Origin: a virus
Taxonomy: Duplodnaviria > Heunggongvirae > Uroviricota > Caudoviricetes
Direction: 5' to 3' (one strand)
Virus record (IMG/VR): IMGVR_UViG_2534681762_000006
Length of the DNA stretch: 20,129 nt
In this document: positions 3,824-20,129 of the stretch, piece after piece
Position numbering within the stretch: the stretch's first letter is position 1
Layout of the letters: each line of letters opens with the position of its first letter
Position numbers and translations under genes: made by a program
The notes under the pieces: generated by a model
Told to the model about the DNA's origin: nothing
What the model saw: only the letters and a program-made list of their open reading frames with translations
Databases searched by the model: none

Positions 3824-4639
3824 TCACCGTACAGTCGGTGATATTGCCTGCCCCCTGATTGCCTTCTGGAAAATCTTAAACTCCAGAGTGACGCTACCAC
3901 CACCACTAGGCATATCAATAACTGCACTGTAACTACCGGGAATGGCCCCTTTAGTTTCTCTGGATGCGATTAATACGCCGTTTTTGCGAACTTCAAAACC
4001 ATAACCCGTGTATCGCGTGCCTCCCGAGTTATTTCCGCTCCCCGGATCGTCATACGCTATACCGTTAAAAATAATGGGCGGAATAATAATCTGGCGGTCA
4101 AAGTTATGATCATCGCTGATGGTGACTGTAACCGTACCGTCTGGTGTTTCCGTGTTACCCCACGTACCGACTTTTTTCGGGAAGGCTTTTGATACAGCTT
4201 TAACGAAATCCCCTCTGACCTGGGTCGCCTCCAGCATGCCCTTAATCGTACAGTTCTGGTTAATCGTGACATTGTTGAGCGTTCCTGAGTTCGCATTCAC
4301 ACTGCCACTGATATCCGCATTTTTAGCGGTCAGCTTTCCGTCTGATGTCAGGGAAAATACCGGAGGACTGCCACCACTGGTAATGGTGGGGGCCGTCAGG
4401 CGCTTCAGGAACACGTCGTTCATGAATATCTGATTGCCCTGCGCCACAAACATCGGCGTTTCATTCCCGTTTGCCGGGTCAATAAATGCGATACGGTTAG
4501 CGGCAACCAGAAACTGACTCAGTTTGCCTTCCTCCGTGTCCTCCATGCTGAGGCCAATACCCGCGACATAATGTTTGCCGTCTTTGGTCTGCTCAATTTT
4601 GACAGCCCACATGGCATTCCACTTATCGTTGGCGTCCTT
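3824..4639 (-). CDS. J: host specificity protein J, C-terminal receptor-binding segment, lying downstream of an in-frame TGA
   Basis: Same reading frame as ORF 4640..7195. The codons after the TGA read [81 protein letters not shown], which matches the lambda J C-terminal region as I recall it. The last ~150 aa diverge from lambda. Confidence 0.85.
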
Positions 4640-7198
<2,559 letters not shown>

Positions 7199-7217
7199 TC
7201 ACGCTCCATAAATGACA

Positions 7218-7237
7218 AAACCGCCCGCAGGCGGTTT
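7218..7237 (-). other. I-J intergenic stem-loop (possible weak terminator or attenuator)
   Basis: 8-bp stem aaaccgcc / ggcggttt with a 4-nt loop, followed on the minus-strand transcript by a moderately U-rich stretch and then the J ribosome-binding site. Confidence 0.35.
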
Positions 7238-7255
7238 CACATAAAACATTTTGCA

Positions 7256-7550
7256 TCAGCGACCAATCACCACAACCTGACCACCGTCCCCTTCGTCTGC
7301 CGTGCTGATCTCCTGAGAAACCACGCGAGACCCCACGCGCATTTCCCCGTACAGAACAGGCAGAACATTGCCCTGGGCAACCATGTTATCCAGTGAGGAG
7401 AAATAGGTGTTCTGCTTACCGTTATCCGTTGTCTGTGTACGGGGAGTTCTGGCTTTCGGTGCCAGCATCTGCGCCACACCACCGAGCACCATACTGGCAC
7501 CGAGAGAAAACAGGATGCCGGTCATACCACCGGTCCCAATGGCTGCCCCC
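7256..7550 (-). CDS. I: tail tip assembly protein I, C-terminal part, in the frame downstream of a 1-nt frameshift
   Basis: ORF 7256..7552 translates to MGAAIGTGGMTGILFSLGASMVLGGVAQMLAPKARTPRTQTTDNGKQNTYFSSLDNMVAQGNVLPVLYGEMRVGSRVVSQEISTADEGDGGQVVVIGR, matching the lambda gpI C-terminus. Confidence 0.85.
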
Positions 7551-8572: not shown

Positions 8573-9271
8573 TTACTGCGAAAGTTTGTTAATGGAAAGG
8601 AAGCCGCCAAAGTTGCCGACGTTATTGCGGAACTTACAACCGCTCAGGCATTTGCTGCATTTATCCTTCGTGATATCGGACGTTGGCTGGTCATATTCAT
8701 CCGCGACAGCCGGACCGCTATAACCGCACTCGTCACCGCGATAGGTCCAGGTGCAGGTGTTGGCCAGCATGATACGTCCCGGAAAAACAGCGCCATCCGT
8801 TTCCGTCGGCGTGGACAGTACAAAGGAGGCACTCACCGCGCTCAGTTCGCTGCACTGCTCAATGCGCCAGCGGCTGATCACCTCCTGCTCCGGATCGGCG
8901 TAACTGTTTCCGTTGACGAAGTTCACCGCATCCAGAAAACGGGCGTAAACCTTACGCCGGACCACCGTTCCGCCGACCAGACTCTGCATATCTTCCGCCA
9001 TCCCGGTGACCATACCGTACAGGTTAGAAACCGTCAGCGTGGGGCGCGTACTGGTGCCTTTGCCATTCAGTTCAAAACCGCTCCCCTGAATGGGATACGG
9101 CTGATACTGTCGCCCCTGCCAGGTGACCGGCTCACCTTTTTCGTTCTGCTCATTACAGAAAAAATAACGTTCTCCACCGACCTCTGTCAGGTCGATTTCC
9201 CAGAGCACCACGCTGGCCGACTGCTCCGCACGGGTGCATTCATTCAGTGTTTCCTGCCGGATATCCTGCAT
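8573..9271 (-). CDS. L: tail tip assembly protein L
   Basis: 232 aa, the same length as lambda gpL. Starts MQDIRQETLNECTRAEQSASVVLWEIDLTEVGGERYFFCNEQNEKGEPVTWQGRQYQPYPIQGSGFELNGKG. Confidence 0.9.
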   Translation of the reverse strand: MQDIRQETLNECTRAEQSASVVLWEIDLTEVGGERYFFCNEQNEKGEPVTWQGRQYQPYPIQGSGFELNGKGTSTRPTLTVSNLYGMVTGMAEDMQSLVGGTVVRRKVYARFLDAVNFVNGNSYADPEQEVISRWRIEQCSELSAVSASFVLSTPTETDGAVFPGRIMLANTCTWTYRGDECGYSGPAVADEYDQPTSDITKDKCSKCLSGCKFRNNVGNFGGFLSINKLSQ

Positions 9272-9600
9272 CAGTTCACCACCTGTTCAAACTCTGCGCT
9301 GAACTCAACACGCAACATACTGACCCGCGACGACCATTTTGCGCAGGTCACCTTTATCTGCCGCCACTCATAAGGCGGCGTCCACAGAAAGGATTTCCAG
9401 CCCCCGTGCTCTTCCAGAAACGACTCCAGTACCGTGGCCTCCTCACGGGGGACAGAAAGCGTCACGCTGTACGTTTTCAGGTTGGCATTCAGCCCGGCAG
9501 GCGCTCGCTGAGAATAGCCATCACCAAAGCGCACCTTTCTTACAGAAGGGACCGAAGCCACATCCATACCGGGTTTCACTTTCCAGCGGAAGGTCTTCAT
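9271..9600 (-). CDS. M: tail tip assembly protein M
   Basis: 109 aa, the same length as lambda gpM. Its start overlaps the H stop by 4 nt (ATGA) and its stop abuts the L start, as in lambda. Confidence 0.9.
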   Translation of the reverse strand: MKTFRWKVKPGMDVASVPSVRKVRFGDGYSQRAPAGLNANLKTYSVTLSVPREEATVLESFLEEHGGWKSFLWTPPYEWRQIKVTCAKWSSRVSMLRVEFSAEFEQVVN

Positions 9601-10301
9601 CGTCCACCTCCGGAGAACAGGCCACCATCACGCATCTGTGTCTGAATTTCATCACGGGCACCCTTGCGGGCCATGTCATACACCGCCTTCAGAGCAGCCG
9701 GACCTATCTGCCCGTTCGTGCCGTCGTTGTTAATCACCACATGGTTATTCTGCTCAAACGTCCCGGACGCCTGCGACCGGCTGTCTGCCATGCTGCCCGG
9801 TGTACCGACATAACCGCCGGTGGCATAGCCGCGCATCAGCCGGTAAAGATTCCCCACGCCAATCCGGCTGGTTGCCTCCTTCGTGAAGACAAATTCACCA
9901 CGGTGAACAATCCCCGCTGGCTCATATTTGCCGCCGGTTCCCGTAAATCCTCCGGTTGCAAAATGGAATTTCGCCGCAGCGGCCTGAATGGCTGTACCGC
10001 CTGACGCGGATGCGCCGCCACCAACAGCCCCGCCAATGGCGCTGCCGATACTCCCGACAATCCCCACCATTGCCTGCTTAAGCAGAATTTCTGTCATCAT
10101 GGACAGCACGGAACGGGTGAAGCTGCGCCAGTTCTGCTCACTGCCGGTCAGCATCGCCGCCATATTCTGTGCAATACCATCAAAGGTCTGCGTGGCTGCA
10201 CTTTTTACCTGCGACATACTGTCCGTGGCGCTCTCTTCCCACTCACTCCAGCCGGACTTCAGGCCTGCCATCCAGCTCCCGCGAAGCTGGTCTTCAGCCG
10301 C
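9597..10301 (-). CDS. H: tail tape measure protein H, C-terminal segment (234 codons) downstream of an in-frame TAG
   Basis: In frame with ORF 10302..12158. It reads AAEDQLRGSWMAGLKSGWSEWEESATDSMSQVKSAATQTFDGIAQNMAAM...RDGGLFSGGGR, matching the lambda gpH C-terminus. Confidence 0.88.
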   Translation of the reverse strand, partial: AAEDQLRGSWMAGLKSGWSEWEESATDSMSQVKSAATQTFDGIAQNMAAMLTGSEQNWRSFTRSVLSMMTEILLKQAMVGIVGSIGSAIGGAVGGGASASGGTAIQAAAAKFHFATGGFTGTGGKYEPAGIVHRGEFVFTKEATSRIGVGNLYRLMRGYATGGYVGTPGSMADSRSQASGTFEQNNHVVINNDGTNGQIGPAALKAVYDMARKGARDEIQTQMRDGGLFSGGGR

Positions 10302-12158
10302 CTAGGTCTTTTTCTGCTCTGACATGACGTTATTCAGCGCCAGCGGATTATCGCCATACTGTTCCTTCAGGCGCTGTTCCGTGGCTTCCCGTTCTGCCTG
10401 CCGGTCAGTCAGCCCCCGGCTTTTCGCATCAATGGCGGCCCGTTTTGCCCGTTGCTGCTGTGCGAATTTATCCGCCTGCTGCGCCAGCGCGTTCAGGCGC
10501 TCCTGATACGTAACCTTGTCGCCAAGTGCAGCCAGCTGGCGTTTGTACTCCAGCGTCTCATCTTTATGCGCCAGCAGGGATTTCTCCTGTGCGGACAGCT
10601 GGCGACGTTGTGCCGCCTCCTCCAGTACCGCGAACTGACTTTCTGCCTTCCACAAATCCCGGCGCTGCTGGCTGATTTTCTCATTCGCTCCGGCATGCTT
10701 CTCCAGCGTCCGGAGTTCTGCCTGAAGCGTCAGCAGGGCAGCATGAGCACTGTCTTCCTGACGATCGCCCGCAGACACCTTCACGCCGGACTGTTTCGGC
10801 TTTTTCAGCGTCGCTTCATAATCCTTTTTCGCCGCCGCCATCAGCGTGTTGTAATCCGCCTGCAGGATTTTCCCGTCTTTCAGTGCCTTGTTCAGTTCTT
10901 CCTGACGGGCGGTATATTTCTCCAGCGGCGTCTGCAGCCGTTCGTAAGCCTTCTGCGCCTCTTCGGTATATTTCAGCCGTGACGCTTCGGTATCGCTCTG
11001 CTGCTGCGCATTTTTGTCCTGTTGAGTCTGCTGCTCAGCCTTCTTTCGGGCGGCTTCAAGCGCAAGACGGGCCTTTTCACGATCATCCCAGTAACGCGCC
11101 CGCGCTTCATCGTTAACAAAATAATCATCCTTGCGCAGATTCCAGATGTCGTCTGCTTTCTTAAACGCAGCCTCTGCCTTAATCAGCATCTCCTGCGCGG
11201 TATCAGGACGACCAATATCCAGCACCGCATCCCACATGGATTTGAATGCCCGTGCTGTCCTGTCTGCCCAGGTTTCCAGCGTGCCCATGTTCTCTTTCAA
11301 GCGTCGGGTCTGGTCATCAAACCCTTTCGTTGCGGCCTCGTTCGCCGCCTGCAATGCCCCGGCTTCATCGCCGGAACGCTGCAACTGAGCAACATACGCA
11401 ATCTGCTCCGCCGTCACGTTATGGAACTGGCGTGCCATCGCCGTCAGCCCCGACGTCGGGTCTGTGGTCAGCTTCCCGAAGGCTTCAGCGACCTTGTCCA
11501 CCTCCACGCCGGATGCAGAGGAGAAACGCGCCACACTCTGGCTGATGGACGCAATCTGAGCCTCACCGCTTACCCCCGCCTTAACCAGTGCGCTGAGTGA
11601 CTCGCTGGTCTGGTTAAACGTCAGCCCTGCCGCCTGCCCGGCTCTGGACAGGACCAGCATACGATCTGCCGTCAGTCCCGCCTGATTGCCGGAAAGGACC
11701 AGCGTTTTGTTGAAATCGGACAGGGTTGAGTTGCCCTGATACCAGGCATACGCCAGCGCTCCGGTCGCCACCGCCAGCGAGGTAGCCCCCACCATCGGCA
11801 GGGTGATCGCACCGGCAAGCCCCCGGAACATGGGGATCATCCCGCCGAAGGAGTCCTTCACCTGACCCCCCTGTTGCAGCAGGATCAGCCACGGACTTTG
11901 CCCGCCTGCAAGCTGCGTGGCCACGTCAGTGAACTGCGCAGGCAGCATACGCATGGCGGCTTTATACTGCCCGACGGAAATTCCCGCTTTCTGTGCAGCC
12001 AGCGCCTGCCGGTTCATCGACTGTTCAACGACTGCCGCTGTTTTTTTCGCATCACTTTCCGTACCGGAAAAATGACGCCTGACTCTGGCCATCTGCTCGT
12101 CAAATCTGGCCGCATCCAGACTCAAATCAACGACCAGATCGCCTACCGGTTCAGCCAT
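10302..12158 (-). CDS. H: tail tape measure protein H, N-terminal 618 codons, ending at an in-frame TAG (10302-10304)
   Basis: Starts MAEPVGDLVVDLSLDAARFDEQMARVRRHFSGTESDAKKTAAVVEQS. The segments total 618 + 1 + 234 = 853 codons, exactly the lambda gpH length. The stop sits where I recall Trp in lambda (...MSEQKKT-W-AAEDQL). Confidence 0.9.
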   Translation of the reverse strand: MAEPVGDLVVDLSLDAARFDEQMARVRRHFSGTESDAKKTAAVVEQSMNRQALAAQKAGISVGQYKAAMRMLPAQFTDVATQLAGGQSPWLILLQQGGQVKDSFGGMIPMFRGLAGAITLPMVGATSLAVATGALAYAWYQGNSTLSDFNKTLVLSGNQAGLTADRMLVLSRAGQAAGLTFNQTSESLSALVKAGVSGEAQIASISQSVARFSSASGVEVDKVAEAFGKLTTDPTSGLTAMARQFHNVTAEQIAYVAQLQRSGDEAGALQAANEAATKGFDDQTRRLKENMGTLETWADRTARAFKSMWDAVLDIGRPDTAQEMLIKAEAAFKKADDIWNLRKDDYFVNDEARARYWDDREKARLALEAARKKAEQQTQQDKNAQQQSDTEASRLKYTEEAQKAYERLQTPLEKYTARQEELNKALKDGKILQADYNTLMAAAKKDYEATLKKPKQSGVKVSAGDRQEDSAHAALLTLQAELRTLEKHAGANEKISQQRRDLWKAESQFAVLEEAAQRRQLSAQEKSLLAHKDETLEYKRQLAALGDKVTYQERLNALAQQADKFAQQQRAKRAAIDAKSRGLTDRQAEREATEQRLKEQYGDNPLALNNVMSEQKKT

Positions 12159-12585
12159 ACCGGACTCCTCCTGCGATCCCTTCTGATACTGTCATCAGCA
12201 TTACGTCATCCTCCGTCATGTCCGCCACATCCGGGGAAGCGGGGATAACTTCATTCCCGTCCGGGCCAAAGCGGACGCCTCCGGCAAGCCCTGCCGCTTT
12301 CTGCATCAGCACATCATCTTCAGGCTCTTCGTCAGCCTCGCGCCGGTTCAGCAGACTGAAATCCAGCGGATGCATATCCGGATCGCTGAAAAACAGGCTG
12401 AGTACGGTGTACGTCAGCCCGGAAAAGTGCATATCCAGCAGAACATCATGAAAATAATGGGTACTGTAAAAGCGGTGCCAGTCGGCATACTCCGTGGATG
12501 ACATCCCGGCAAGCATGGCGCGCCAGTCGGGTCGCCCCATCTCACGCGCCAGTTTCAGGGCAAAACTCAGCTCACCGTCGAACAC
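12151..12585 (-). CDS. T: T-frame of the tail assembly chaperone, expressed only as a G-T fusion by programmed -1 frameshifting (the listed start is an ORF-caller artefact)
   Basis: ORF translation (M)FDGELSFALKLAREMGRPDWRAMLAGMSSTEYADWHRFYSTHYFHDVLL matches the lambda T-frame. It overlaps H by 8 nt and G by 19 nt, as in lambda. Confidence 0.85.
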   Translation of the reverse strand: MFDGELSFALKLAREMGRPDWRAMLAGMSSTEYADWHRFYSTHYFHDVLLDMHFSGLTYTVLSLFFSDPDMHPLDFSLLNRREADEEPEDDVLMQKAAGLAGGVRFGPDGNEVIPASPDVADMTEDDVMLMTVSEGIAGGVRYG

Positions 12586-12989
12586 TTTCCCGCAGAAACA
12601 GGCTCTGCTGGCCCGGCGTCATCTGCCTGTTCAGGTGCATCATTCACAACAAACTCAGACATACCGGACAGACGCATTACCACATTTTCAGCCTGAGCAA
12701 TTGCCTCTGTGGGCCAGGTGGTAAGCACTTCCTGCTCAATTTGTTTAACGGCTTCATTCATGGACGGCATCTTTGTCTTCTGCGGATGGCTATGCCACAG
12801 GGACATCGCCACCAGAAAAGCACCGGTTCTGACGAGATCTTCCACGCTCACCTGTCGATTGAGACTGGATCCCGCCTGTTCTGCCTGTCGTTTCAGCAGG
12901 GCGAGATGCTCAATTCGCTGCAGGGCTGACAGTTCAGAAAGCGTGACGCTCACACCGTTATATTCAAATGATTCGGTTTTCAGGAACAT
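12567..12989 (-). CDS. G: tail assembly chaperone G
   Basis: 140 aa, the same length as lambda gpG: MFLKTESFEYNGVSVTLSELSALQRIEHLALLKRQAEQAGS... Confidence 0.9.
   Translation of the reverse strand: MFLKTESFEYNGVSVTLSELSALQRIEHLALLKRQAEQAGSSLNRQVSVEDLVRTGAFLVAMSLWHSHPQKTKMPSMNEAVKQIEQEVLTTWPTEAIAQAENVVMRLSGMSEFVVNDAPEQADDAGPAEPVSAGKCSTVS
12585..12591 (-). other. programmed -1 ribosomal frameshift slippery heptamer G_GGA_AAG (G to G-T fusion)
   Basis: Plus-strand ctttccc at 12585-12591 is GGGAAAG on the minus strand. In the G frame the codons are GCG GGA AAG UGU; after a -1 slip the reading is GGG AAA GUG UUC GAC..., giving the T-frame sequence VFDGELSF. Confidence 0.85.
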
Positions 12990-13004
12990 CGCTGACTCTC
13001 CGGA

Positions 13005-13745
13005 TTAACTGTCGGTGACGGTGATTTCTGCAACCACAGCAAGTTCACCATTACCGGATACAACCGGAATGTTGACCTTGCCTGCAGCAACACCTTTCAC
13101 GGTGATGGTCATACCACTGACCGACACGGTGGCTTTTGTTTTATCCGCAGACACCGCACGGAAGCTCTTGTCGGTTGCGCCTTCCGGCTGGAATGCCACG
13201 GTCAGCGTGGTGCTCTGCCCTTTCACCACCGAAGTGCTGGCAGGCGTCACGGTCATGCCGGTTGCCGCTGTTACCGTGCTGCGATCTTCTGCCATCGACG
13301 GACGTCCCACGTTGGTGACTTTCACCGTGCGGGTGATCACTTCCTTCGCCGTCACCGCCTTACCGATACTGCTGACCCAGCCGCGAAACACATCGACCGT
13401 GCCGTTCGGGAAGCGGATTTTATAGGCACGGGTATCCCCTTCATTAAACCACGCCAGCAGCGCCTGCTGCCCCTGCTCTCCGGGCATCCACGCCAGCGTG
13501 AAGCTGGTATCTCCGGCAGATTTCTGCCCCTGCCCGGTCGCAGTCCAGTCCGCATCTTCATCATCGAGATAGCTGTCGTCATAGGACTCAGCGGTCAGTT
13601 CGCCGGGCGTCAGGTCTTTAACTTTAGCCAGACGCGACCAGTCAACGTCTGAAAGCGGGTTCGCATAAGGGTCACCGTTCCCCTTATAAACCCACAGTGT
13701 GGTCCCGGCCCCTTTCACCGGCATTACTGGATTTGGTACAGGCAT
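13005..13745 (-). CDS. V: major tail tube protein V
   Basis: Start chosen at ATG 13743-13745 ([22 protein letters not shown]...), giving 246 aa as in lambda gpV. The ORF track extends to an upstream ATG at 13775, which would overlap U. GAGGA Shine-Dalgarno 4 nt upstream. Confidence 0.88.
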
Positions 13746-13752
13746 AGCGTCC

Positions 13753-14148
13753 TCACATTTCATAGGTAATGACATAAGTCAGATCGGCTGAACTCCACAG
13801 GCCCGCATCATCGTCGCGCCGGTAGTCATAGCCACTGGCCACCAAACTGGTGATCAAATCTGACAGTGCCGGGACATCGCTCATCACCGGATAAATCCGG
13901 GACTCCATCCACGAATCCAGCTCTGAATCCGGCACCTGAGCAGGCAGGAAAACTTCAATATGCAGCTCCGCCTGCCAGGTATCACTGTCCAGCTCTTCGC
14001 CCGTGTATTCAGCGCCGGTGAGATAAACGGCAATTGCCGGAAAATCCGCCTCATCAAAAACAGCGGGGCGACCATCAAAAAGCGTCGCCCCGGTGTCATG
14101 CTTCTCCAGTGCATCCAGTACGGCTGCACGGAGTTCAGTATGTTTCAT
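13753..14148 (-). CDS. U: tail terminator protein U
   Basis: 131 aa, the same length as lambda gpU: [54 protein letters not shown]... Overlaps Z by 4 nt. Confidence 0.9.
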
Positions 14149-14723
14149 CGCTTTATTACCATTCTCAGTTGATGCTGCAGCGCATAGCCCAGCTCTTTCG
14201 GAAGACGTTCACGCCGTATCCGTTCAATATTCTGTTTAAACGCCGTGGTAAGCGGCACCGCCATCGGGATTTTCACCACATCAATGGGGTAACGGTTTTT
14301 CCCGGCCACACGCTGCATGACATGCCACCGGCCATTTTTCAGTTGCTGAATAAACGCGCCGGGAATACGACGGTTTCCCACCACAAGCACGCTGCCGCCA
14401 CCTTTCAGGGATGAACGCTGCCCCTTTTTACGACGTCTGCGGCGGGAAAGGACAACCCGCGCGTTACCCAGCTTGATTACGGGCAAATCCCCCCGGTTAA
14501 CCCTGATTCTGGCCTGCGGATTTTTGACCGTGGCCCTTTTCAGCCTGGCCCTTTCCTTTACCAGTTTCCGGCGTACCTTTGTCTCACGGGCAACCTGTGA
14601 CGCAGACTGCGATATCGCGGATGACGCAACGCGGTTAATGGCCATTGCGGCGGCACCAGGCACCGCCGTTTTGCTGATACGGCTGAGGTTTTCAACGGCC
14701 TGCTCAAGACCTTTTATGGCCAT
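14145..14723 (-). CDS. Z: tail completion (head-tail joining) protein Z
   Basis: 192 aa, the same length as lambda gpZ. Confidence 0.88.
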   Translation of the reverse strand: MAIKGLEQAVENLSRISKTAVPGAAAMAINRVASSAISQSASQVARETKVRRKLVKERARLKRATVKNPQARIRVNRGDLPVIKLGNARVVLSRRRRRKKGQRSSLKGGGSVLVVGNRRIPGAFIQQLKNGRWHVMQRVAGKNRYPIDVVKIPMAVPLTTAFKQNIERIRRERLPKELGYALQHQLRMVIKR

Positions 14724-14734
14724 ACATCCCCCTT

Positions 14735-15088
14735 TCAGCGGCGACGGTTAACGGCAGGCGGCACGCCACGCCCAAGCCAGAGATGACAGCTTCCGCCATC
14801 ATCCGGCGAAATCCGGTCCACCCAGAAGTTTTCCTCGCCGATGGTCAGCGTGTCGCCGCGCCGCAGCTGCCGCACATCATCAGTCCGGACAAACAGGGAC
14901 GGGCTGGAGCCTTCAACGCGCACCCCCTGTCCGGCATAGCTGATATTTTCAGGGTCATCAAAAACACCACGTATCACAGCACCGGACAGCTCACCGGATG
15001 TCATGGTGGCTGACGTTCCCATGTACCCGCGTATCGTTTCATCGGCGCGGGCAATGGCAGCATCGAACAGGTTATCGGAATCAGCCAC
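14735..15088 (-). CDS. FII: head-tail connector protein FII
   Basis: 117 aa, the same length as lambda gpFII: MADSDNLFDAAIARADETIRGYMGTSATMTSGELSGAVIRGVFDDPENISYAG... Confidence 0.88.
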   Translation of the reverse strand: MADSDNLFDAAIARADETIRGYMGTSATMTSGELSGAVIRGVFDDPENISYAGQGVRVEGSSPSLFVRTDDVRQLRRGDTLTIGEENFWVDRISPDDGGSCHLWLGRGVPPAVNRRR

Positions 15089-15099
15089 AGCGCCTCCCG

Positions 15100-15498
15100 T
15101 TATTGCATTCTGGCCAGGCCATGTTCTGTCATTTCGGCTGCCACACCGGCAGAGACACGAAACGCCGTTCCCGGCAGCACAAATGCCACAGGCTCATCCC
15201 GCGTGGCGTGAAGTGCATCAGTATGCAGCGTCACCAGTGCCACGACCGTGACCAGAGCAGCCGTATCAATCACGGTATCCGGCTGCGCTGATACCACCTC
15301 ATTTTCATGTCCGGTCAGCGCATTTTCCGGGCTGACAGATGTGTCCTGACCGGCAGCGTCATCCGTGTCATCAAGCTCCTCTTCCAGCTCTGCCACACGG
15401 AGCACCAGTTCTTCTTTCGTCCCCGTCAGGCTGACATCACGGTTCAGTTGTTCACCCAGCGAGCGGAGACGGGCAATCAGTTCATCTTTCGTCATGGA
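15100..15498 (-). CDS. FI: DNA packaging / head assembly protein FI
   Basis: Start chosen at ATG 15496-15498 (MTKDELIARLRSLGEQLNRDVSLTGTKEEL...), giving 132 aa as in lambda gpFI, with a GGAGGAG Shine-Dalgarno upstream. The ORF track starts 12 codons further upstream. Confidence 0.88.
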   Translation of the reverse strand, partial: SMTKDELIARLRSLGEQLNRDVSLTGTKEELVLRVAELEEELDDTDDAAGQDTSVSPENALTGHENEVVSAQPDTVIDTAALVTVVALVTLHTDALHATRDEPVAFVLPGTAFRVSAGVAAEMTEHGLARMQ

Positions 15499-15516
15499 CT
15501 CCTCCACAGAGAGAAA

Positions 15517-15534
15517 ATGGCCCCGAAGGGCCAT
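15517..15534 (-). other. E-FI intergenic hairpin with a UUCG tetraloop
   Basis: Stem atggccc (15517-15523) pairs with gggccat (15528-15534). The plus-strand loop cgaa is UUCG on the minus-strand mRNA, closed by a C-G pair. It is followed by UUUCUCUCU and the FI Shine-Dalgarno. Confidence 0.5.
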
Positions 15535-15536
15535 GA

Positions 15537-15572
15537 TTACGCCAGTTGTACGGACACGAACTCATCAGGATC
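15537..15572 (-). pseudogene. E: 3-prime remnant of major capsid gene E (last 11 codons DPDEFVSVQLA plus stop), separated from the rest of E by the IS66 insertion
   Basis: Hand translation of the minus strand gives GAT CCT GAT GAG TTC GTG TCC GTA CAA CTG GCG TAA. It is contiguous with the E fragment at 18661.. once the IS and one TSD copy are removed. Confidence 0.85.
15565..15572. repeat. target-site duplication TCAGGATC, left copy
   Basis: Identical 8-mer immediately outside both IS ends. Removing the IS and one copy rebuilds an uninterrupted E sequence (gaactcatcaggatcagccaacag on the plus strand). Confidence 0.9.
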
Positions 15573-15657
15573 GTAACCGTCTCATTTAAACCGTCTTTCG
15601 CCTCCCTTTCCTGTTTCCGATACTAATGTCCATTTTCGCAGTAAAGGGACATTTAAG

Positions 15658-16308
15658 ATGAATGCACGAAAAGCGGTACTGGCAGACAATCCGGAATTGA
15701 TCCTGCGTGTGCTACAACTGAGATTTGACGAGTCACTGTCGTACCCGCGCATTTCTGCGCAGACCGGTATCAGCAAAACCGCCATTTTTTCTCTGGTGAG
15801 GCGATTTCACCAGGTATTCACTGACTGGCCTCTTTCCGGAGAATATTCCTGCGTGCAACTGGCCCGGGCTCTGTTCCCGGGGCGATACCCTTCAGCCCCG
15901 ACAGTGACTCAGCCTGTGAAAACAGAGAAAATCCGCCGGAACCGATTTTCACCGGAGTTTAAATGGAGGCTTGTTCAGCAAACTCTTTTACCCGGTGCCT
16001 GTGTCGCACAAATAGCTCGTGAGAACGGAATCAACGATAACCTGCTCTTTAACTGGCGGCATCTCTGGCGTAACGGCGGCCTGCAGCCGACCGGCGAACA
16101 TGAAACATCGCTACTTCCCGTGACGTTAACTCCGGAGCCGGATAATAAAATCCCGGCACCAGTGCAGATACCTGAACAGATAAATACACCGCCCGACAGT
16201 CTGTGCTGTGAGCTGGTTCTGCCGGCCGGAACTCTCAGGCTGAAAGGTGAACTGACACCGGCGTTATTACAGACACTTATCCGCGAAATGAAAGGGAGCA
16301 GCCACTAA
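15658..16308 (+). CDS. tnpA: IS66-family accessory protein TnpA (Orf1), helix-turn-helix
   Basis: 216-aa ORF, first gene of the IS. Its stop overlaps the tnpB start (ATGA). Contains a transposase-like helix-turn-helix region (RRNRFSPEFKWRLVQQTLLPGACVAQIARENGINDNLLFNWR). Confidence 0.75.
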   Translation: MNARKAVLADNPELILRVLQLRFDESLSYPRISAQTGISKTAIFSLVRRFHQVFTDWPLSGEYSCVQLARALFPGRYPSAPTVTQPVKTEKIRRNRFSPEFKWRLVQQTLLPGACVAQIARENGINDNLLFNWRHLWRNGGLQPTGEHETSLLPVTLTPEPDNKIPAPVQIPEQINTPPDSLCCELVLPAGTLRLKGELTPALLQTLIREMKGSSH

Positions 16309-16655
16309 TGATATCTCTCCCTGCCGGTTCGCGTATCTGGCTGGTTGCCGGTATCACCGACATGCGAAATGGTTTTAACGGCCTGGCATCAAAAGTTCAG
16401 AACGTCCTGAAGGATGACCCGTTCTCCGGGCATCTGTTCATCTTCCGCGGACGCCGGGGTGACCAGATAAAAGTGTTGTGGGCTGACAGTGACGGACTGT
16501 GCCTCTTCACCAAACGCCTGGAGCGGGGCCGCTTCGTCTGGCCGGTTACCCGTGACGGCAAGGTGCACCTTACTCCGGCTCAGTTATCTATGCTTCTTGA
16601 AGGTATCAACTGGAAGCACCCGAAACGAACGGAACGCGCTGGCATCCGCATATAA
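16308..16655 (+). CDS. tnpB: IS66-family protein TnpB (Orf2)
   Basis: 115 aa: MISLPAGSRIWLVAGITDMRNGFNGLASKVQNVLKDDPFSGHLFIFRGRRGDQIKVLWADSDGLCLFTKRLERGRFVWP, the typical IS66 Orf2. Confidence 0.88.
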   Translation: MISLPAGSRIWLVAGITDMRNGFNGLASKVQNVLKDDPFSGHLFIFRGRRGDQIKVLWADSDGLCLFTKRLERGRFVWPVTRDGKVHLTPAQLSMLLEGINWKHPKRTERAGIRI

Positions 16656-16674
16656 CCCGTTGTAAAGTGAGGAT

Positions 16675-18228
16675 ATGGACACCTCACTTGCTCATGAGAA
16701 TGCCCGCCTGCGGGCACTGTTGCAGACGCAACAGGACACCATCCGCCAGATGGCGAAATACAACCGCCTGCTCTCACAGCGGGTGGCGGCTTATGCTTCC
16801 GAAATCAACCGGCTGAAGGCGCTGGTTGCGAAACTGCAGCGCATGCAGTTCGGTAAAAGCTCAGAAAAACTTCGCGCTAAAACCGAACGGCAGATACAGG
16901 AAGCCCAGGAGCGAATCAGCGCACTTCAGGAAGAAATGGCGGAAACGCTGGGTGAGCAATATGACCCGGTACTGCCATCCGCCCTGCGCCAGTCTTCAGC
17001 CCGTAAGCCGTTACCGGCCTCACTTCCCCGTGAAACCCGGGTCATCCGGCCGGAAGAGGAATGCTGCCCGGCCTGTGGTGGTGACCTCAGTCCTCTGGGG
17101 TGTGATGTGTCAGAGCAACTGGAGCTTATCAGCAGCGCTTTTAAGGTTATCGAAACACAACGTCCGAAACTGGCCTGTTGCCGGTGCGACCATATCGTGC
17201 AGGCACCAGTACCTTCAAAACCCATTGCACGCAGTTATGCCGGAGCGGGGCTTCTGGCTCATATCGTCACCGGGAAGTATGCAGACCATCTGCCGTTATA
17301 CCGCCAGTCAGAAATATACCTTCGTCAGGGCGTGGAACTGAGCCGCGCCACGCTGGGGCGCTGGACCGGTGCCGTTGCTGAACTGCTGGAGCCGCTGTAT
17401 GACGTGCTGCGCCAGTATGTGCTGATGCCCGGTAAAGTCCATGCGGATGATATCCCCGTTCCGGTCCAGGAGCCGGGCAGTGGTAAAACAAGAACTGCCC
17501 GGCTGTGGGTCTATGTCCGTGATGACCGTAACGCCGGTTCACAGATGCCCCCGGCGGTCTGGTTCGCGTACAGCCCGGACCGGAAAGGTATCCATCCACA
17601 GAATCACCTGGCCGGTTACAGCGGTGTGCTTCAGGCAGATGCTTACGGTGGTTACCGGGCGTTATACGAATCCGGCAGAATAACGGAAGCCGCGTGTATG
17701 GCCCATGCCCGGAGAAAAATCCACGATGTGCATGCAAGAGTGCCAACCGACATCACCACGGAAGCCCTGCAGCGTATCGGTGAACTGTATGTCATCGAGG
17801 CAGAAGTCCGGGGATGTTCAGCAGAACAGCGTCTGGCAGCAAGAAAAGCCAGAGCGGCTCCACTGATGCAGTCACTGTATGACTGGATACAGGAACAGAT
17901 GAAAACACTGTCGCGTCACTCGGATACGGCAAAAGCGTTCGCATACCTGCTGAAACAGTGGGAGGCCCTGAACGTGTACTGCAGTAATGGCTGGGTGGAA
18001 ATCGACAACAACATCGCAGAGAACGCCTTACGGGGAGTGGCCGTAGGCCGGAGAAACTGGCTCTTCGCGGGTTCCGACAGCGGTGGCGAACATGCGGCGG
18101 TGTTGTACTCGCTGATCGGCACATGCCGTCTGAACAATGTAGAGTCCAGAAAAATGGCTTGCGTTACGTTATTGAGCATATCCAGGACTGGCCGGCAAAC
18201 CGGGTACGCGAATCTGTTGCCCTGGTAA
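16675..18228 (+). CDS. tnpC: IS66-family DDE transposase TnpC, C-terminus frameshifted inside the first unit of the tandem duplication
   Basis: 517-aa ORF with an N-terminal coiled-coil and a CxxC...CxxC zinc-ribbon-like motif (CPACGG...CCRCDH). It ends ...[34 protein letters not shown], whereas the duplicated unit and the second IS copy read ...[37 protein letters not shown](T/S)SQ. Confidence 0.88.
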
Positions 18229-18660
18229 AGTTGATCTGACTTCTCAGTAAATATCAATACGGTTCTGGCGAGCCGCTTACAGATGAAAACACTGTCGCGT
18301 CACTCGGATACGGCAAAAGCGTTCGCATACCTGCTGAAACAGTGGGAGGCCCTGAACGTGTACTGCAGTAATGGCTGGGTGGAAATCGACAACAACATCG
18401 CAGAGAACGCCTTACGGGGAGTGGCCGTAGGCCGGAAAAACTGGCTCTTCGCGGGTTCCGACAGCGGTGGCGAACATGCGGCGGTGTTGTACTCGCTGAT
18501 CGGCACATGCCGTCTGAACAATGTAGAGCCAGAAAAATGGCTGCGTTACGTTATTGAGCATATCCAGGACTGGCCGGCAAACCGGGTACGCGATCTGTTG
18601 CCCTGGAAAGTTGATCTGACTTCTCAGTAAATATCAATACGGTTCTGGCGAGCCGCTTAC
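17897..18660 (+). repeat. direct tandem duplication of the IS66 right end: unit 1 at 17897..18280 (384 bp) and unit 2 at 18281..18660 (380 bp), each ending in the right inverted repeat
   Basis: Unit 2 repeats unit 1 from agatgaaaacactgtcgcgtcactcgg through gagccgcttac. Unit 1 differs by four 1-nt insertions (gagtccag vs gagccag; ggcttgcg vs ggctgcg; gcgaatctg vs gcgatctg; ccctggtaaag vs ccctggaaag) and one substitution (ggagaaactgg vs ggaaaaactgg). Confidence 0.9.
18283..18630 (+). CDS. TnpC C-terminal fragment (115 aa) encoded by duplication unit 2; an intact version of the transposase C-terminus
   Basis: [115 protein letters not shown]. Near-identical to the C-terminus of the second IS copy. 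Confidence 0.7.
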   Translation: MKTLSRHSDTAKAFAYLLKQWEALNVYCSNGWVEIDNNIAENALRGVAVGRKNWLFAGSDSGGEHAAVLYSLIGTCRLNNVEPEKWLRYVIEHIQDWPANRVRDLLPWKVDLTSQ

Positions 18661-18668
18661 TCAGGATC
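18661..18668. repeat. target-site duplication TCAGGATC, right copy
   Basis: See the left copy. 8 bp is the characteristic target-site duplication length for IS66-family elements. Confidence 0.9.
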
Positions 18669-19398
18669 AGCCAACAGCATCAGCGGTGCTGACTGAATCA
18701 TGGTGAACTCACGCGCCGGATCGCCGGTGGTCACCCAGTTTTTCGGGTAGCGGGCAGAGGCGTTAATACCTTCGCGCTGTGCGTCCGCATCCTGAATGCA
18801 GCCATAGGTGCGCAGACCGCGTGCCTGAGTGTTCCCCAGCACCATCGTGTTGTCCGGCAGGAAGTTCTTTTTGACGTCGTTTTCCACGTACTGTCCGGAA
18901 TACACGACGATCGCCGTATCGCCATACATCCCCTTATAGGACACCGCTTCGCCCAGGTCTTTTACCGCTGTCTCCAGCTCGGAATTAGAGCCGCGACGGG
19001 TATCCAGCTTCTCCTTGACGGCTTTGAAGGAACGGAACAGCGCCCAGCCTTTCGGATCAAACACGATGATATTCACCACGCCGCTGGCGTTCAGCGCGTA
19101 GGCTTCGATATCGTCGGTCGGGTCATACGTGGACTTGTCACGCTTGCTCCACTCCGTGCCGCCGGACTGCGTGATGTTGTTCGCCGCACTGCGGCCCATA
19201 TCCACCTCAACCGGATCGAAGGCTTCACCGGTCATGGTGTATTTGCCCTTGAGCACGGCAGAAACTGCCTGCATCTCTTCGACCTGAGCAATGGCCAGCT
19301 CTTCGTCACGCATGTTCTGCAGGATGATGCGACGGCGGCGGTAAGCCGGGTCCGCCAGATTCTGCGGATCTTCATCCGGCAGGCGACGCAGGGTCATC
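18661..19398 (-). pseudogene. E: major capsid protein E, internal fragment (about codons 91-333 of 341), bounded on both sides by IS66 ends
   Basis: ORF 18657..19397 translates to MTLRRLPDEDPQNLADPAYRRRRIILQNMRDEELAIAQVEEMQAVSAVLKGKYTMTGEAFDPVEVDMGRS...MIQSAPLMLLADP, matching lambda gpE from an internal Met. The terminal Glu and TAA stop are created at the IS junction. Confidence 0.88.
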
Positions 19399-20129
19399 GT
19401 AAGCGACTCGTCAGAACCGTATTGATATTTACTGAGAGCTCAGATCAACTTTCCAGGGCAACAGATCGCGTACCCGGTTTGCCGGCCAGTCCTGGATATG
19501 TTCAATGACGTAACGCAGCCACTTTTCTGGCTCCACATTGTTCAGACGGCATGTGCCGATCAGCGAGTACAACACCGCCGCATGTTCACCACCGCTGTCG
19601 GAACCCGCGAACATCCAGTTTTTCCGGCCTACGGCCACTCCCCGTAAGGCGTTCTCTGCGATGTTGTTGTCGATTTCCACCCAGCCATTACTGCAGTACA
19701 CGTTCAGTGCATCCCACTGTTTCAGCAGGTATGCGAACGCTTTTGCCGTATCTGAGTGACGCGACAGTGTTTTCATCTGTTGCTGTATCCAGTCATACAG
19801 TGACTGCATCAGTGGCGCGGCTCTGGCTTTTCTTGCCGCCAGACGCTGTTCTGCTGAACAGCACCGGACCTCTGCCTCGATGGCATACAGTTCACCGATA
19901 CGCTGCAGGGCTTCCGTGGTGATGTAGGTGGGCGCTCTTGCATGCACATCGTGGATTTTTCTCCGGGCATGAGCCATACACGCGGCTTCCGTTATTCTGC
20001 CGGATTCGTATAACGCCCGGTAACCACCGTAAGCATCGGCCTGAAGCACACCGCTGTAACCGGCCAGGTGATTTTGTGGATGGATACCTTTCCGGTCCGG
20101 ACTGTACGCGAACCAGACCGCCGGGGGCA
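19399..20129 (-). mobile_element. second IS66-family copy in inverted orientation, partial (runs off the right edge); its right inverted repeat abuts E at 19399
   Basis: Plus strand at 19399 reads gtaagcgactcgtcagaaccgtattgatatttactgag, the reverse complement of the first copy's right end with 2 mismatches in 38. Internal sequence encodes the TnpC C-terminal half on the minus strand. Confidence 0.85.
19429..20129 (-). CDS. tnpC: IS66-family transposase TnpC, C-terminal portion (5-prime part lies beyond the window)
   Basis: ORF 19429..20049 ((M)[60 protein letters not shown]...KVDLSSQ); the frame stays open upstream to the window edge (...[27 protein letters not shown]). It shows several amino-acid differences from copy 1 (for example VPTDITT vs APTYITT, WEAL vs WDAL, NWLF vs NWMF). 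Confidence 0.85.

Follow-up and report, generated by a model that had tools for sequence, protein, structure and literature searches.

An IS66-family element with an 8-bp target-site duplication in capsid gene E of a lambda-like prophage of E. coli ThroopD

Among described insertion sequences (IS), the one closest to the element analyzed here is IS679 of the IS66 family, which shares with it a core of 2,704 bp, an 8-bp duplication, terminal inverted repeats that are imperfect and ~25 bp long, and the gene layout tnpA-tnpB-tnpC, with tnpB overlapping the tnpA stop and tnpC located ~20 bp downstream. IS679 was reportedly described from EPEC plasmid pB171 (Han et al. 2001, J Bacteriol 183:4296, as cited in PMC6778807). 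A copy of exactly 2,704 bp that is labeled "IS679 family" in RefSeq was 95.9% identical to the present element over 2,704 bp in a gap-free alignment, and it is this label that gives the name. The present element differs from the labeled copy by its ~4% divergence, an extra 380-bp repeat of the right end and a damaged tnpC. By the ISfinder convention, isoforms have ~95% or more nucleotide identity to the reference. The RefSeq name of the matching transposase (WP_000381449.1) is just "IS66 family".

A second relative is ISCro1, an IS66-family element of Citrobacter rodentium and E. coli. It was only 94.7% identical to the present element over the 3' 2,286 bp, and the first ~420 bp were too diverged to align. 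Copies of ISCro1 interrupt other lambdoid prophage late genes, namely FII in strain A1 and U in ETEC H10407. Both strains ranked high for the region as a whole but were rejected as candidates for the same insertion, as it is these genes, not E, that are interrupted. Because of these related copies, an IS66-family insertion in a lambdoid late gene is an ordinary kind of event.

The window analyzed is the whole 20-kb contig (20,129 bp) of E. coli ThroopD; the protein records EMW91560.1, EMW91562.1 and EMW91550.1 bear the strain name. ThroopD is an enterotoxigenic (ETEC) isolate from Dallas, collected in 1975 (PMC4309559). The minus strand of the window carries the late-gene arm of a lambda-like prophage. 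In intact relatives, the order D-E-FI is kept, with E located 41 bp upstream of FI. The ThroopD FI was 98.5% identical over 131 aa to that of a reference prophage with an uninterrupted E (L017), and an intact, 341-aa E was directly upstream of the identical FI allele in all nine of the other contigs listed. Unlike the gene for lambda gpE, the major capsid protein (PF03864), the ThroopD E gene has been split into three by two insertion sequences. The features are collected in Table 1.

Table 1. Features of the E region and lesions in the tail genes (coordinates are those of the window).
Feature	Coordinates	Strand	Basis or remark
FI, DNA-packaging gene, intact; first late gene downstream of the insertion	15100..15495	-	PF14000 Packaging_FI
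Detached E 3' remnant, codons DEFVSVQLA plus stop, including the left duplication copy	15538..15572	-	rejoined translation
Left copy of the 8-bp target-site duplication TCAGGATC	15565..15572	.	sequence; 8-bp flank overlap in uninterrupted L017
Whole inserted element, 3,088 bp: full IS679-like IS66-family copy plus tandem 3' fragment	15573..18660	+	
Full copy, 2,708 bp	15573-18280	+	
Left inverted repeat (GTAACCGTCTCATTTAAACCGTCTT)	15573..15597	+	17/25 positions match the reverse complement of the right end
tnpA, 216 aa, accessory helix-turn-helix protein	15658..16308	+	PF01527; NF038385 IS66_access_TnpA
tnpB, 115 aa, IS66 accessory protein	16308..16655	+	PF05717; NF033819 above cut-off
tnpC, DDE transposase, 517 aa as assembled	16675..18228	+	PF03050, PF13005, PF13007
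tnpC private changes	18053 (K460R substitution); 18145, 18159, 18211, 18226 (single-base insertions)	+	
Inner right inverted repeat, end of the full IS copy	18256..18280	+	identical to the outer right inverted repeat
Tandem 380-bp copy of IS positions 2325-2704	18281..18660	+	repeat families D1, D3, D4
ORF for an intact TnpC C-terminus, inside the tandem copy	18283-18630	+	PF03050 tail and PF13817
Outer right inverted repeat	18636-18660	+	
Right copy of the 8-bp target-site duplication TCAGGATC	18661..18668	.	sequence; also in independent contig NKEQ01000157.1
Internal E fragment, residues 88-332	18661..19398	-	PF03864; called ORF 18657-19397 ends in ADPE and a stop
Second IS66-family element, ISCro1-like, right end and 3' part of tnpC	19399..20129	-	terminus GTAAGCGACTCGTCAGAACCG; NF033517
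H lesion			TGG>TAG; vs 99.2%-identical intact prophage
I lesion			C6>C5; vs 99.2%-identical intact prophage
J lesions			TGG>TGA and T3>T2; vs 99.2%-identical intact prophage

The insertion of an IS66-family element in E was confirmed. The initial annotation had placed a precise insertion in the last codons of this lambda-type capsid gene, flanked by a perfect 8-bp duplication, and both statements were borne out by the duplication, the rejoined translation and the empty site. The octamer occurs only twice on both strands of the window, once at each end of the element (mean of 0.38 occurrences in shuffles). The left copy runs straight into GTAACCGTCTC, and GAGCCGCTTAC directly precedes the right copy; a chance match of the 8 bases flanking both termini has a probability of 4^-8 (~1.5e-5). 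A target duplication of 8 bp is the reported rule for the IS66 family (PMC6778807), and this family trait is thus present. When positions 15538-15572 were joined to 18669-19398, removing the element and one repeat, the minus-strand translation ended in MIQSAPLMLLADPDEFVSVQLA and a stop, while the interrupted copy ended in MLLADPE and a stop; excision hence rebuilds the 3' end of E as had been claimed, and the last nine residues are indeed exchanged for a single Glu. The restored C-terminus, MLLADPDEFVSVQLA, is that of a gpE-type protein.

The comparison with the empty site in relatives, which the initial annotation had called for, gave the same result. Among complete E. coli genomes, 3,183 records matched the rebuilt junction with a coverage of at least 80%, the best match being a single ungapped piece with 100% coverage and 99.5% identity; 79 phage records matched it as well. 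At the empty site of the reference prophage, the left flank ended at 17600 and the right flank started at 17593, an overlap of exactly 8 bp. Both junctions were also present, on two contigs, in a second assembly (GCA_002462765.1): one contig (L036) corresponded to window positions 8631-15649, reaching 77 bp into the IS, and the other (L006) was an exact match to 18585-19475. The IS interior is known from a single draft assembly, since the second stops 76-77 bp inside each IS end. An exact-pattern scan of viral contigs did not return the left junction. Since IS copies are repetitive and one of them lies at the contig end, the junctions could in principle be chimeric, with two IS copies threaded together and FI and the E fragment not true neighbors. 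This is extremely unlikely: the two flanks overlap by exactly 8 bp and meet at a site that more than 3,000 genomes have uninterrupted. Such a fit is the signature of a single insertion event, and both junction sequences recur in the second assembly.

The genes of the inserted element were on the strand opposite the late genes, as had been noted, tnpA, tnpB and tnpC being antisense to the late operon. The tnpA product scored 285 bits against NF038385 (cut-off 150). TnpC matched PF03050 (E=7e-103) together with the zf-IS66 and LZ_Tnp_IS66 domains, and it scored 460 bits against NF033517 (cut-off 180). The gene set is that of the IS66 family, with tnpA and tnpB upstream of tnpC; the ATG of tnpB overlaps the tnpA stop codon (TAATG, 16306-16310), and a short spacer of 19 bp (16656-16674) separates tnpB from tnpC. 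The termini, GTAACCG... and GTAAGCG..., fit the imperfect IS66 inverted repeats GTAA(G/C)CG, with 17 of 25 positions matching, and the same termini were found on the copies L001, L002, L003 and L038. The earlier assignment to the IS66 family thus stood, with the tnpA, tnpB and tnpC profiles above their cut-offs, but the element is not one simple IS: a 2,708-bp copy is followed by a tandem 380 bp, giving one left end and two right ends (two right inverted repeats). At the internal junction, CTTAC is followed directly by AGATGAAAAC. When the first copy of the duplicated tail was disregarded, the element differed at 1 of 2,704 positions from a copy on plasmid NZ_CP025861 (L003), and the tandem 380-bp copy had 0 differences from the tail of that same copy.

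A similar architecture was found on complete IncFIA ETEC plasmids (NZ_CP025904, NZ_CP035856 pTW11681_100 and NZ_CP035839). This relative, of 3,083 bp, consists of a 2,704-bp copy and a 379-bp ISCro1-like right-end fragment, and it is 99.3% identical overall to the ThroopD unit. In both, the last ~380 bp of an IS66-family element come directly after a full copy, and 8-bp duplications flank the whole. The plasmid fragment differs in being ISCro1-like (14 substitutions), in starting at position 2326 and in having CTTAC joined to GATG, whereas the 380 bp of the ThroopD unit are identical to the element's own tail, start 1 bp away at position 2325 and have CTTAC joined to AGATG. Unlike that of ThroopD as assembled, tnpC is intact in the plasmid copies. 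The plasmid relative occupied two sites that lie 12 bp from each other, and a separate 8-bp duplication marks each of them (TCTGATTA and TCCTGTTC), which indicates that two-ended units move as a whole.

The ThroopD tnpC differs from intact copies in length (517 aa as assembled vs 523 aa). Aligned to the intact protein, it was native apart from K460R through residue 490 and, being frameshifted as assembled, garbled thereafter, and a profile search of the 517-aa product returned no match to the C-terminal domain, PF13817. The five tail changes fall within 174 bp, in the last 230 bp of the full copy. They were carried by none of ~9,400 database matches to the tail segment (best match 97.7% identical), and the exact 517-aa product is on record only on the ThroopD contig. 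The changes may be real damage or consensus errors; being private and clustered, they resemble consensus error in a repeat more than natural mutation. Other copies could act in trans on the identical IS ends.

These same changes bear on an alternative for the unit as a whole, in which it is a plain 2,704-bp IS and both the 380-bp tandem repeat and the four single-base insertions arose as artefacts of assembly. A collapsed IS contig that ended at the IS terminus could, for example, have been joined to a flank contig extending 380 bp inside the IS, with the overlap left untrimmed. The draft contig spans a multi-copy repeat and ends inside another copy, the five private changes are clustered in the final 230 bp of that first copy, the 517-aa product is confined to this contig, and the repeat copies overlap by only 2 nt (AC) at the join. 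We nonetheless regard this alternative as somewhat unlikely, for closed ETEC plasmids share the architecture, with a fragment start only 1 bp off and with their own target duplications at two sites, and a random mis-join would fall within 1 bp of the plasmid position with a chance of ~0.1%.

For the preferred, two-ended unit, the most economical origin would be the insertion of one copy into another at AGATGAAA, 380 bp from the right end, after which transposition would have used the inner copy's left end together with the outer copy's right end; in-place recombination between the long left-hand repeats might have had the same outcome. A nested IS-in-IS precursor was not found in complete E. 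coli genomes, where a chimeric query gave only two-piece matches from neighboring copies. Pattern scans of species-representative genomes and JGI metagenomes, two of the three contig collections covered, did not return the exact internal junction, and a 114-bp BLAST query over this junction joined both halves on ordinary copies, with the variants not separable. A more far-reaching reading, which we consider distinctly improbable, is that the two-right-end unit is a naturally mobile derivative that arose by self-nested insertion, position 2325/2326 in tnpC being a preferred target for sister copies. Were it true, the ThroopD and ETEC plasmid junctions, 1 bp apart, would be independent events, and the IS66 family, whose target choice and mechanism are poorly defined, would have a structural target preference. 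The two-ended variant is a small lead for work on end choice and target choice in the family. A parallel to the preferred-target reading was drawn from IncFIA plasmids, where three insertions of IS66-family elements lie within 28 bp next to hok.

The initial annotation had treated E as truncated by this insertion. The loss of the last nine residues holds, but E is not otherwise whole: only residues 88-333 are present, and a second IS66-family element begins at 19399. The E fragment (PF03864, Phage_cap_E, E=2.5e-46) lies between the right ends of the two elements, and residues 88-333 aligned at 99.6% identity in tblastn with E of the reference prophage. The second element runs off the contig end, and its genes are oriented as E. 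It was 96.0% identical to the canonical tail and 99.5% identical to the 379-bp plasmid fragment, and its right inverted repeat is shared with ISCro1, being equal to that of a RefSeq-labeled ISCro1 copy (L001). As a simple insertion, it would give E codons 1-89, GATGACCC, an IS66 left end, the remainder of the element, its right end and again GATGACCC. The upstream chimera so predicted, E(1-89) followed by RNRLI and a stop, was present exactly in the protein collection, and its 90%-identity cluster included a 92-aa entry named ThroopD.

Two related IS copies in inverted orientation 738 bp apart, with the far side of the second outside the window, might also mean that the 738-bp E fragment stems from an IS-mediated deletion or inversion, or that it is the passenger of a composite transposon, rather than the product of two simple insertions. 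We hold this to be very unlikely, given the perfect duplication and matching empty site of the first IS, and given that the chimera expected of a simple insertion with an 8-bp duplication exists exactly, with the ThroopD-named entry in its cluster. The composite transposon in particular was rejected, as both IS right ends face the E fragment and each has evidence of its own simple insertion.

Two simple insertions thus remain the preferred account. In the first, an IS66-family element closest to IS679 would have transposed into codon 333 of E; its DDE transposase would have cut the two target strands at points staggered by 8 bp, and gap repair would have duplicated TCAGGATC, as is typical of the family. 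The event would strip the last nine residues from E and separate it from FI by 3.1 kb of antisense DNA. Taken as one combined reading, it is highly probable that an IS679-like element, as a two-ended unit, inserted in E with target duplication, that the second element independently hit E after codon 89, that the prophage is a defective, decaying remnant, and that the insertion was one step of this decay, without evident function. The defective state follows from the second hit in E and from the nonsense and frameshift mutations in H, I and J. A lambdoid prophage of a historical ETEC strain would thus have been inactivated when two IS66-family elements hit its capsid gene, with point decay in the tail genes coming later.

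Any polar effect on late transcription, which the initial annotation had thought probable, would be largely moot, because the capsid gene is broken twice and H, I and J carry lesions. RNA polymerase modified by Q reads through terminators. No excess of terminator-like sites was found in the IS on the late-transcript strand.

The locus provides a clean, independently verified instance of the 8-bp duplication made by an IS679-like element. In annotation, a full IS and a partial repeat should be recorded for the 3.1-kb unit, and a pseudogene in three pieces for E. Beyond such bookkeeping its significance is slight, the two-ended IS variant being only a mild curiosity. The tail genes H, I and J were compared with a 99.2%-identical intact prophage. 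The frameshift allele of I is widespread elsewhere, and many of the assemblies with it are visibly error-rich; being common in other assemblies, it is uninformative on the quality of the ThroopD assembly. The amber codon of H was also present in the second assembly.

The insertion of an IS66-family element into capsid gene E, as observed in the initial annotation, was confirmed. The octamer TCAGGATC was found at 15565-15572 and 18661-18668 and, with both strands considered, nowhere else in the window (shuffled mean, 0.38), and the perfect 8-bp duplication described earlier was thus borne out. The 3,088-bp block between the two copies starts with GTAACCGTCTC and finishes with GAGCCGCTTAC, and the inverted repeats match at 17 of 25 terminal positions. 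On the minus strand, a Phage_cap_E protein is encoded in the right flank and FI in the left. When the flanks were joined with one octamer copy, the translation ended in MIQSAPLMLLADPDEFVSVQLA and a stop, compared to MLLADPE and a stop for the interrupted gene. Excision of the element plus one repeat therefore does rebuild the 3' end of E, and the claim that nine residues were replaced by a single Glu was exact.

The reconstructed junction was matched by 3,183 records in complete E. coli genomes (coverage of at least 80%; top E. coli match 99.5% identical over 100% of the query, in one piece) and by 79 phage records. Comparison with the empty site in related prophages had been suggested, and the flanks were contiguous there: in L017, an intact relative with an uninterrupted E, the right flank aligned from 17593 and the left flank to 17600, an overlap of exactly 8 bp. 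An intact 341-aa E lay directly upstream in all nine of the other contigs listed with an identical FI allele.

The window is the complete contig AQEJ01000040.1 of assembly GCA_000355115.2, the proteins of which were deposited as E. coli ThroopD, an ETEC isolate obtained in Dallas in 1975 (PMC4309559). In assembly GCA_002462765.1, a contig of 7,019 bp corresponds to window 8631-15649, save for an 18-mismatch patch in gene L, and enters the left IS end by 77 bp; an 891-bp contig is identical to window 18585-19475. Because both junctions recur, the insertion is real and common to at least two assemblies. The gene L patch (112 bp, window 8989-9100) holds all 18 differences from contig NKEQ01000071.1 of that assembly, and it could reflect recombination or assembly cross-talk among several lambdoid prophages.

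Han et al. (2001) reportedly regarded the tnpA/tnpB/tnpC anatomy and an 8-bp duplication as the signature of the IS66 family. All three genes were present in the element (see table); the tnpA stop is overlapped by the tnpB start (TAATG), and 19 bp then separate tnpB from tnpC. The same signature is described in PMC6778807, and the family assignment made earlier was upheld by the gene set, the start/stop overlap and the duplication.

Genes of the IS66-family element in E and lesions in the prophage tail genes
Feature	Coordinates	Strand	Description	Basis
tnpA		plus	216-aa helix-turn-helix protein	Pfam and NCBIfam cut-offs passed
tnpB		plus	115-aa TnpB_IS66 protein	Pfam and NCBIfam cut-offs passed
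tnpC		plus	DDE_Tnp_IS66 transposase with zinc-finger and leucine-zipper domains	Pfam and NCBIfam cut-offs passed
H	10302-10304		TGG>TAG (amber)	vs JNE132847
J	4640-4642		TGG>TGA (opal)	vs JNE132847
I	7545		C6>C5 frameshift	vs JNE132847
J	3863		T3>T2 frameshift	vs JNE132847

A probable second right end was missed in the initial annotation. Positions 17897-18280 are repeated at 18281-18660, so that the IS right end is present twice in tandem (384 and 380 bp), each time with a right inverted repeat. A 2,704-bp copy from plasmid NZ_CP025861 served as the reference. The second tail copy is the canonical tail, with no differences; the first carries a substitution at 18053 and single-base insertions at 18145, 18159, 18211 and 18226, and the remainder of the element differs at one base. 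TnpC has K460R, is otherwise native up to residue 490, and is garbled thereafter until a stop at residue 517. It is devoid of the DDE_Tnp_IS66_C domain, which is intact in a fragment ORF at 18283-18630. None of the five changes was found in ca. 9,400 database matches to the tail segment (best match, 97.7% identical), and the 517-aa product is on record from the window contig only. Real damage and consensus error in the repeat are about equally probable explanations for these changes.

A unit of like design occurs in complete ETEC IncFIA plasmids, where a canonical 2,704-bp copy is followed by a 379-bp right-end fragment (3,083 bp in all). The plasmid fragment is ISCro1-like, with 14 substitutions, whereas the 380-bp fragment in the window is the element's own canonical tail; the junctions lie one base apart (CTTAC/GATG in the plasmid unit, CTTAC/AGATG in the window). 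The plasmid unit was found at two sites 12 bp apart with separate 8-bp duplications, TCTGATTA and TCCTGTTC, and it therefore transposes whole, by its outer right end. Were the join in the window an assembly error at a random position, it would fall within one base of the plasmid junction with a chance of about 1/1000; a real duplication in the window is therefore favored, and we consider it probable.

Such a structure would have arisen when a sister copy was hit by another copy, 380 bp short of the sister's right end; under this nested model, the duplication left by that insertion would make up the fragment's first 8 bp. Either joint transposition from the inner left end and outer right end or recombination between the long left-hand repeats would have followed. 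A single origin with subsequent gene conversion of the fragment is a possible alternative. For the nested model, no IS-in-IS precursor was found in complete E. coli genomes using a chimeric query. Exact-pattern scans revealed no further copies of the internal junction in species-representative genomes and JGI metagenomes, or of the left junction among viral contigs. Beside hok on the IncFIA ETEC plasmids (L002, L003, L019-L024), three IS66-family sites occur within 28 bp (duplications TCCTGTTC, TCTGATTA and TGCTGCCC; one insertion oppositely oriented), and this cluster looks like a local insertion hotspot.

Judged by length and sequence identity, the closest known element appears to be IS679: a RefSeq-labelled "IS679 family" copy is likewise 2,704 bp and is 95.9% identical, and ISCro1 is 94.7% identical across the 3' 2.3 kb. 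Plasmids commonly carry near-identical copies (39 PLSDB records at 99% identity or above). In other, related lambdoid prophages, ISCro1 copies interrupt FII in strain A1 (L001 2588-5286; duplication CGAAATCC) and U in ETEC H10407 (L037, approximately 4593-7287), and adjoin C-type protease genes (two S49 peptidase annotations) in O26 strains. The deposited record already had the IS66 proteins annotated, as well as the capsid fragment. A known element and a known kind of event are involved, the two-ended form being a minor curiosity. On an O166:H15 chromosome, two "IS679 family" copies, identical to each other and in direct orientation, are separated by 143 bp (L038 1239-3942 and 4086-6789). A further copy of the first element's IS, with tnpC split into 368-aa and 115-aa ORFs, occurs in a lambdoid prophage of another assembly, with the lysis/bor genes on one side and Nu1 on the other (L013, AFEB01000020.1, 2762-5348).

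The initial interpretation as a whole was partly supported. The 3' truncation of E by an IS stood, but E is not otherwise whole: a second IS66-family element, encoded on the minus strand, has its right end GTAAGCGACTCGTCAGAACCG at 19399 and extends as far as the contig end. Its identity to the tail of the first element is 96.0%, and it shares the inverted repeat of a RefSeq-labelled ISCro1 copy. It cuts E after codon 89, and the window holds E residues 88-333 only, a 738-bp fragment with an IS right end on either side, the two being inverted relative to each other. A simple second insertion with an 8-bp duplication (GATGACCC, E strand) should leave an upstream piece comprising E(1-89), RNRLI and a stop. 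Exactly this 94-aa protein is present in the protein collection from three contigs, the longest being 523,891 bp; a 92-aa entry in the same 90%-identity cluster, located on a contig also of 523,891 bp, is attributed by name to ThroopD.

Tail lesions were called against a 99.2%-identical intact tail module from strain JNE132847. The H amber is also present in GCA_002462765.1; the I allele is uninformative because it recurs widely in other assemblies, which are often error-rich. Given the lesions in H, I and J, the prophage is a decaying remnant. The IS genes are antisense to the late operon, as had been noted, and a probable polar effect had been proposed. Terminator-like sites in the IS on the late-transcript strand showed no excess over shuffles, and the sole good hairpin (15534-15517) falls outside the insertion, in the native E-FI spacer. 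Lambdoid phages transcribe their late genes under Q antitermination, which should blunt any polar effect of the IS. As the capsid gene is split into three pieces, the question carries no phenotypic weight. The tail-fibre gene at the window's left end contains three tandem 132-nt units (1292-1687), of which the second and third show 77% and 63% identity with the first.
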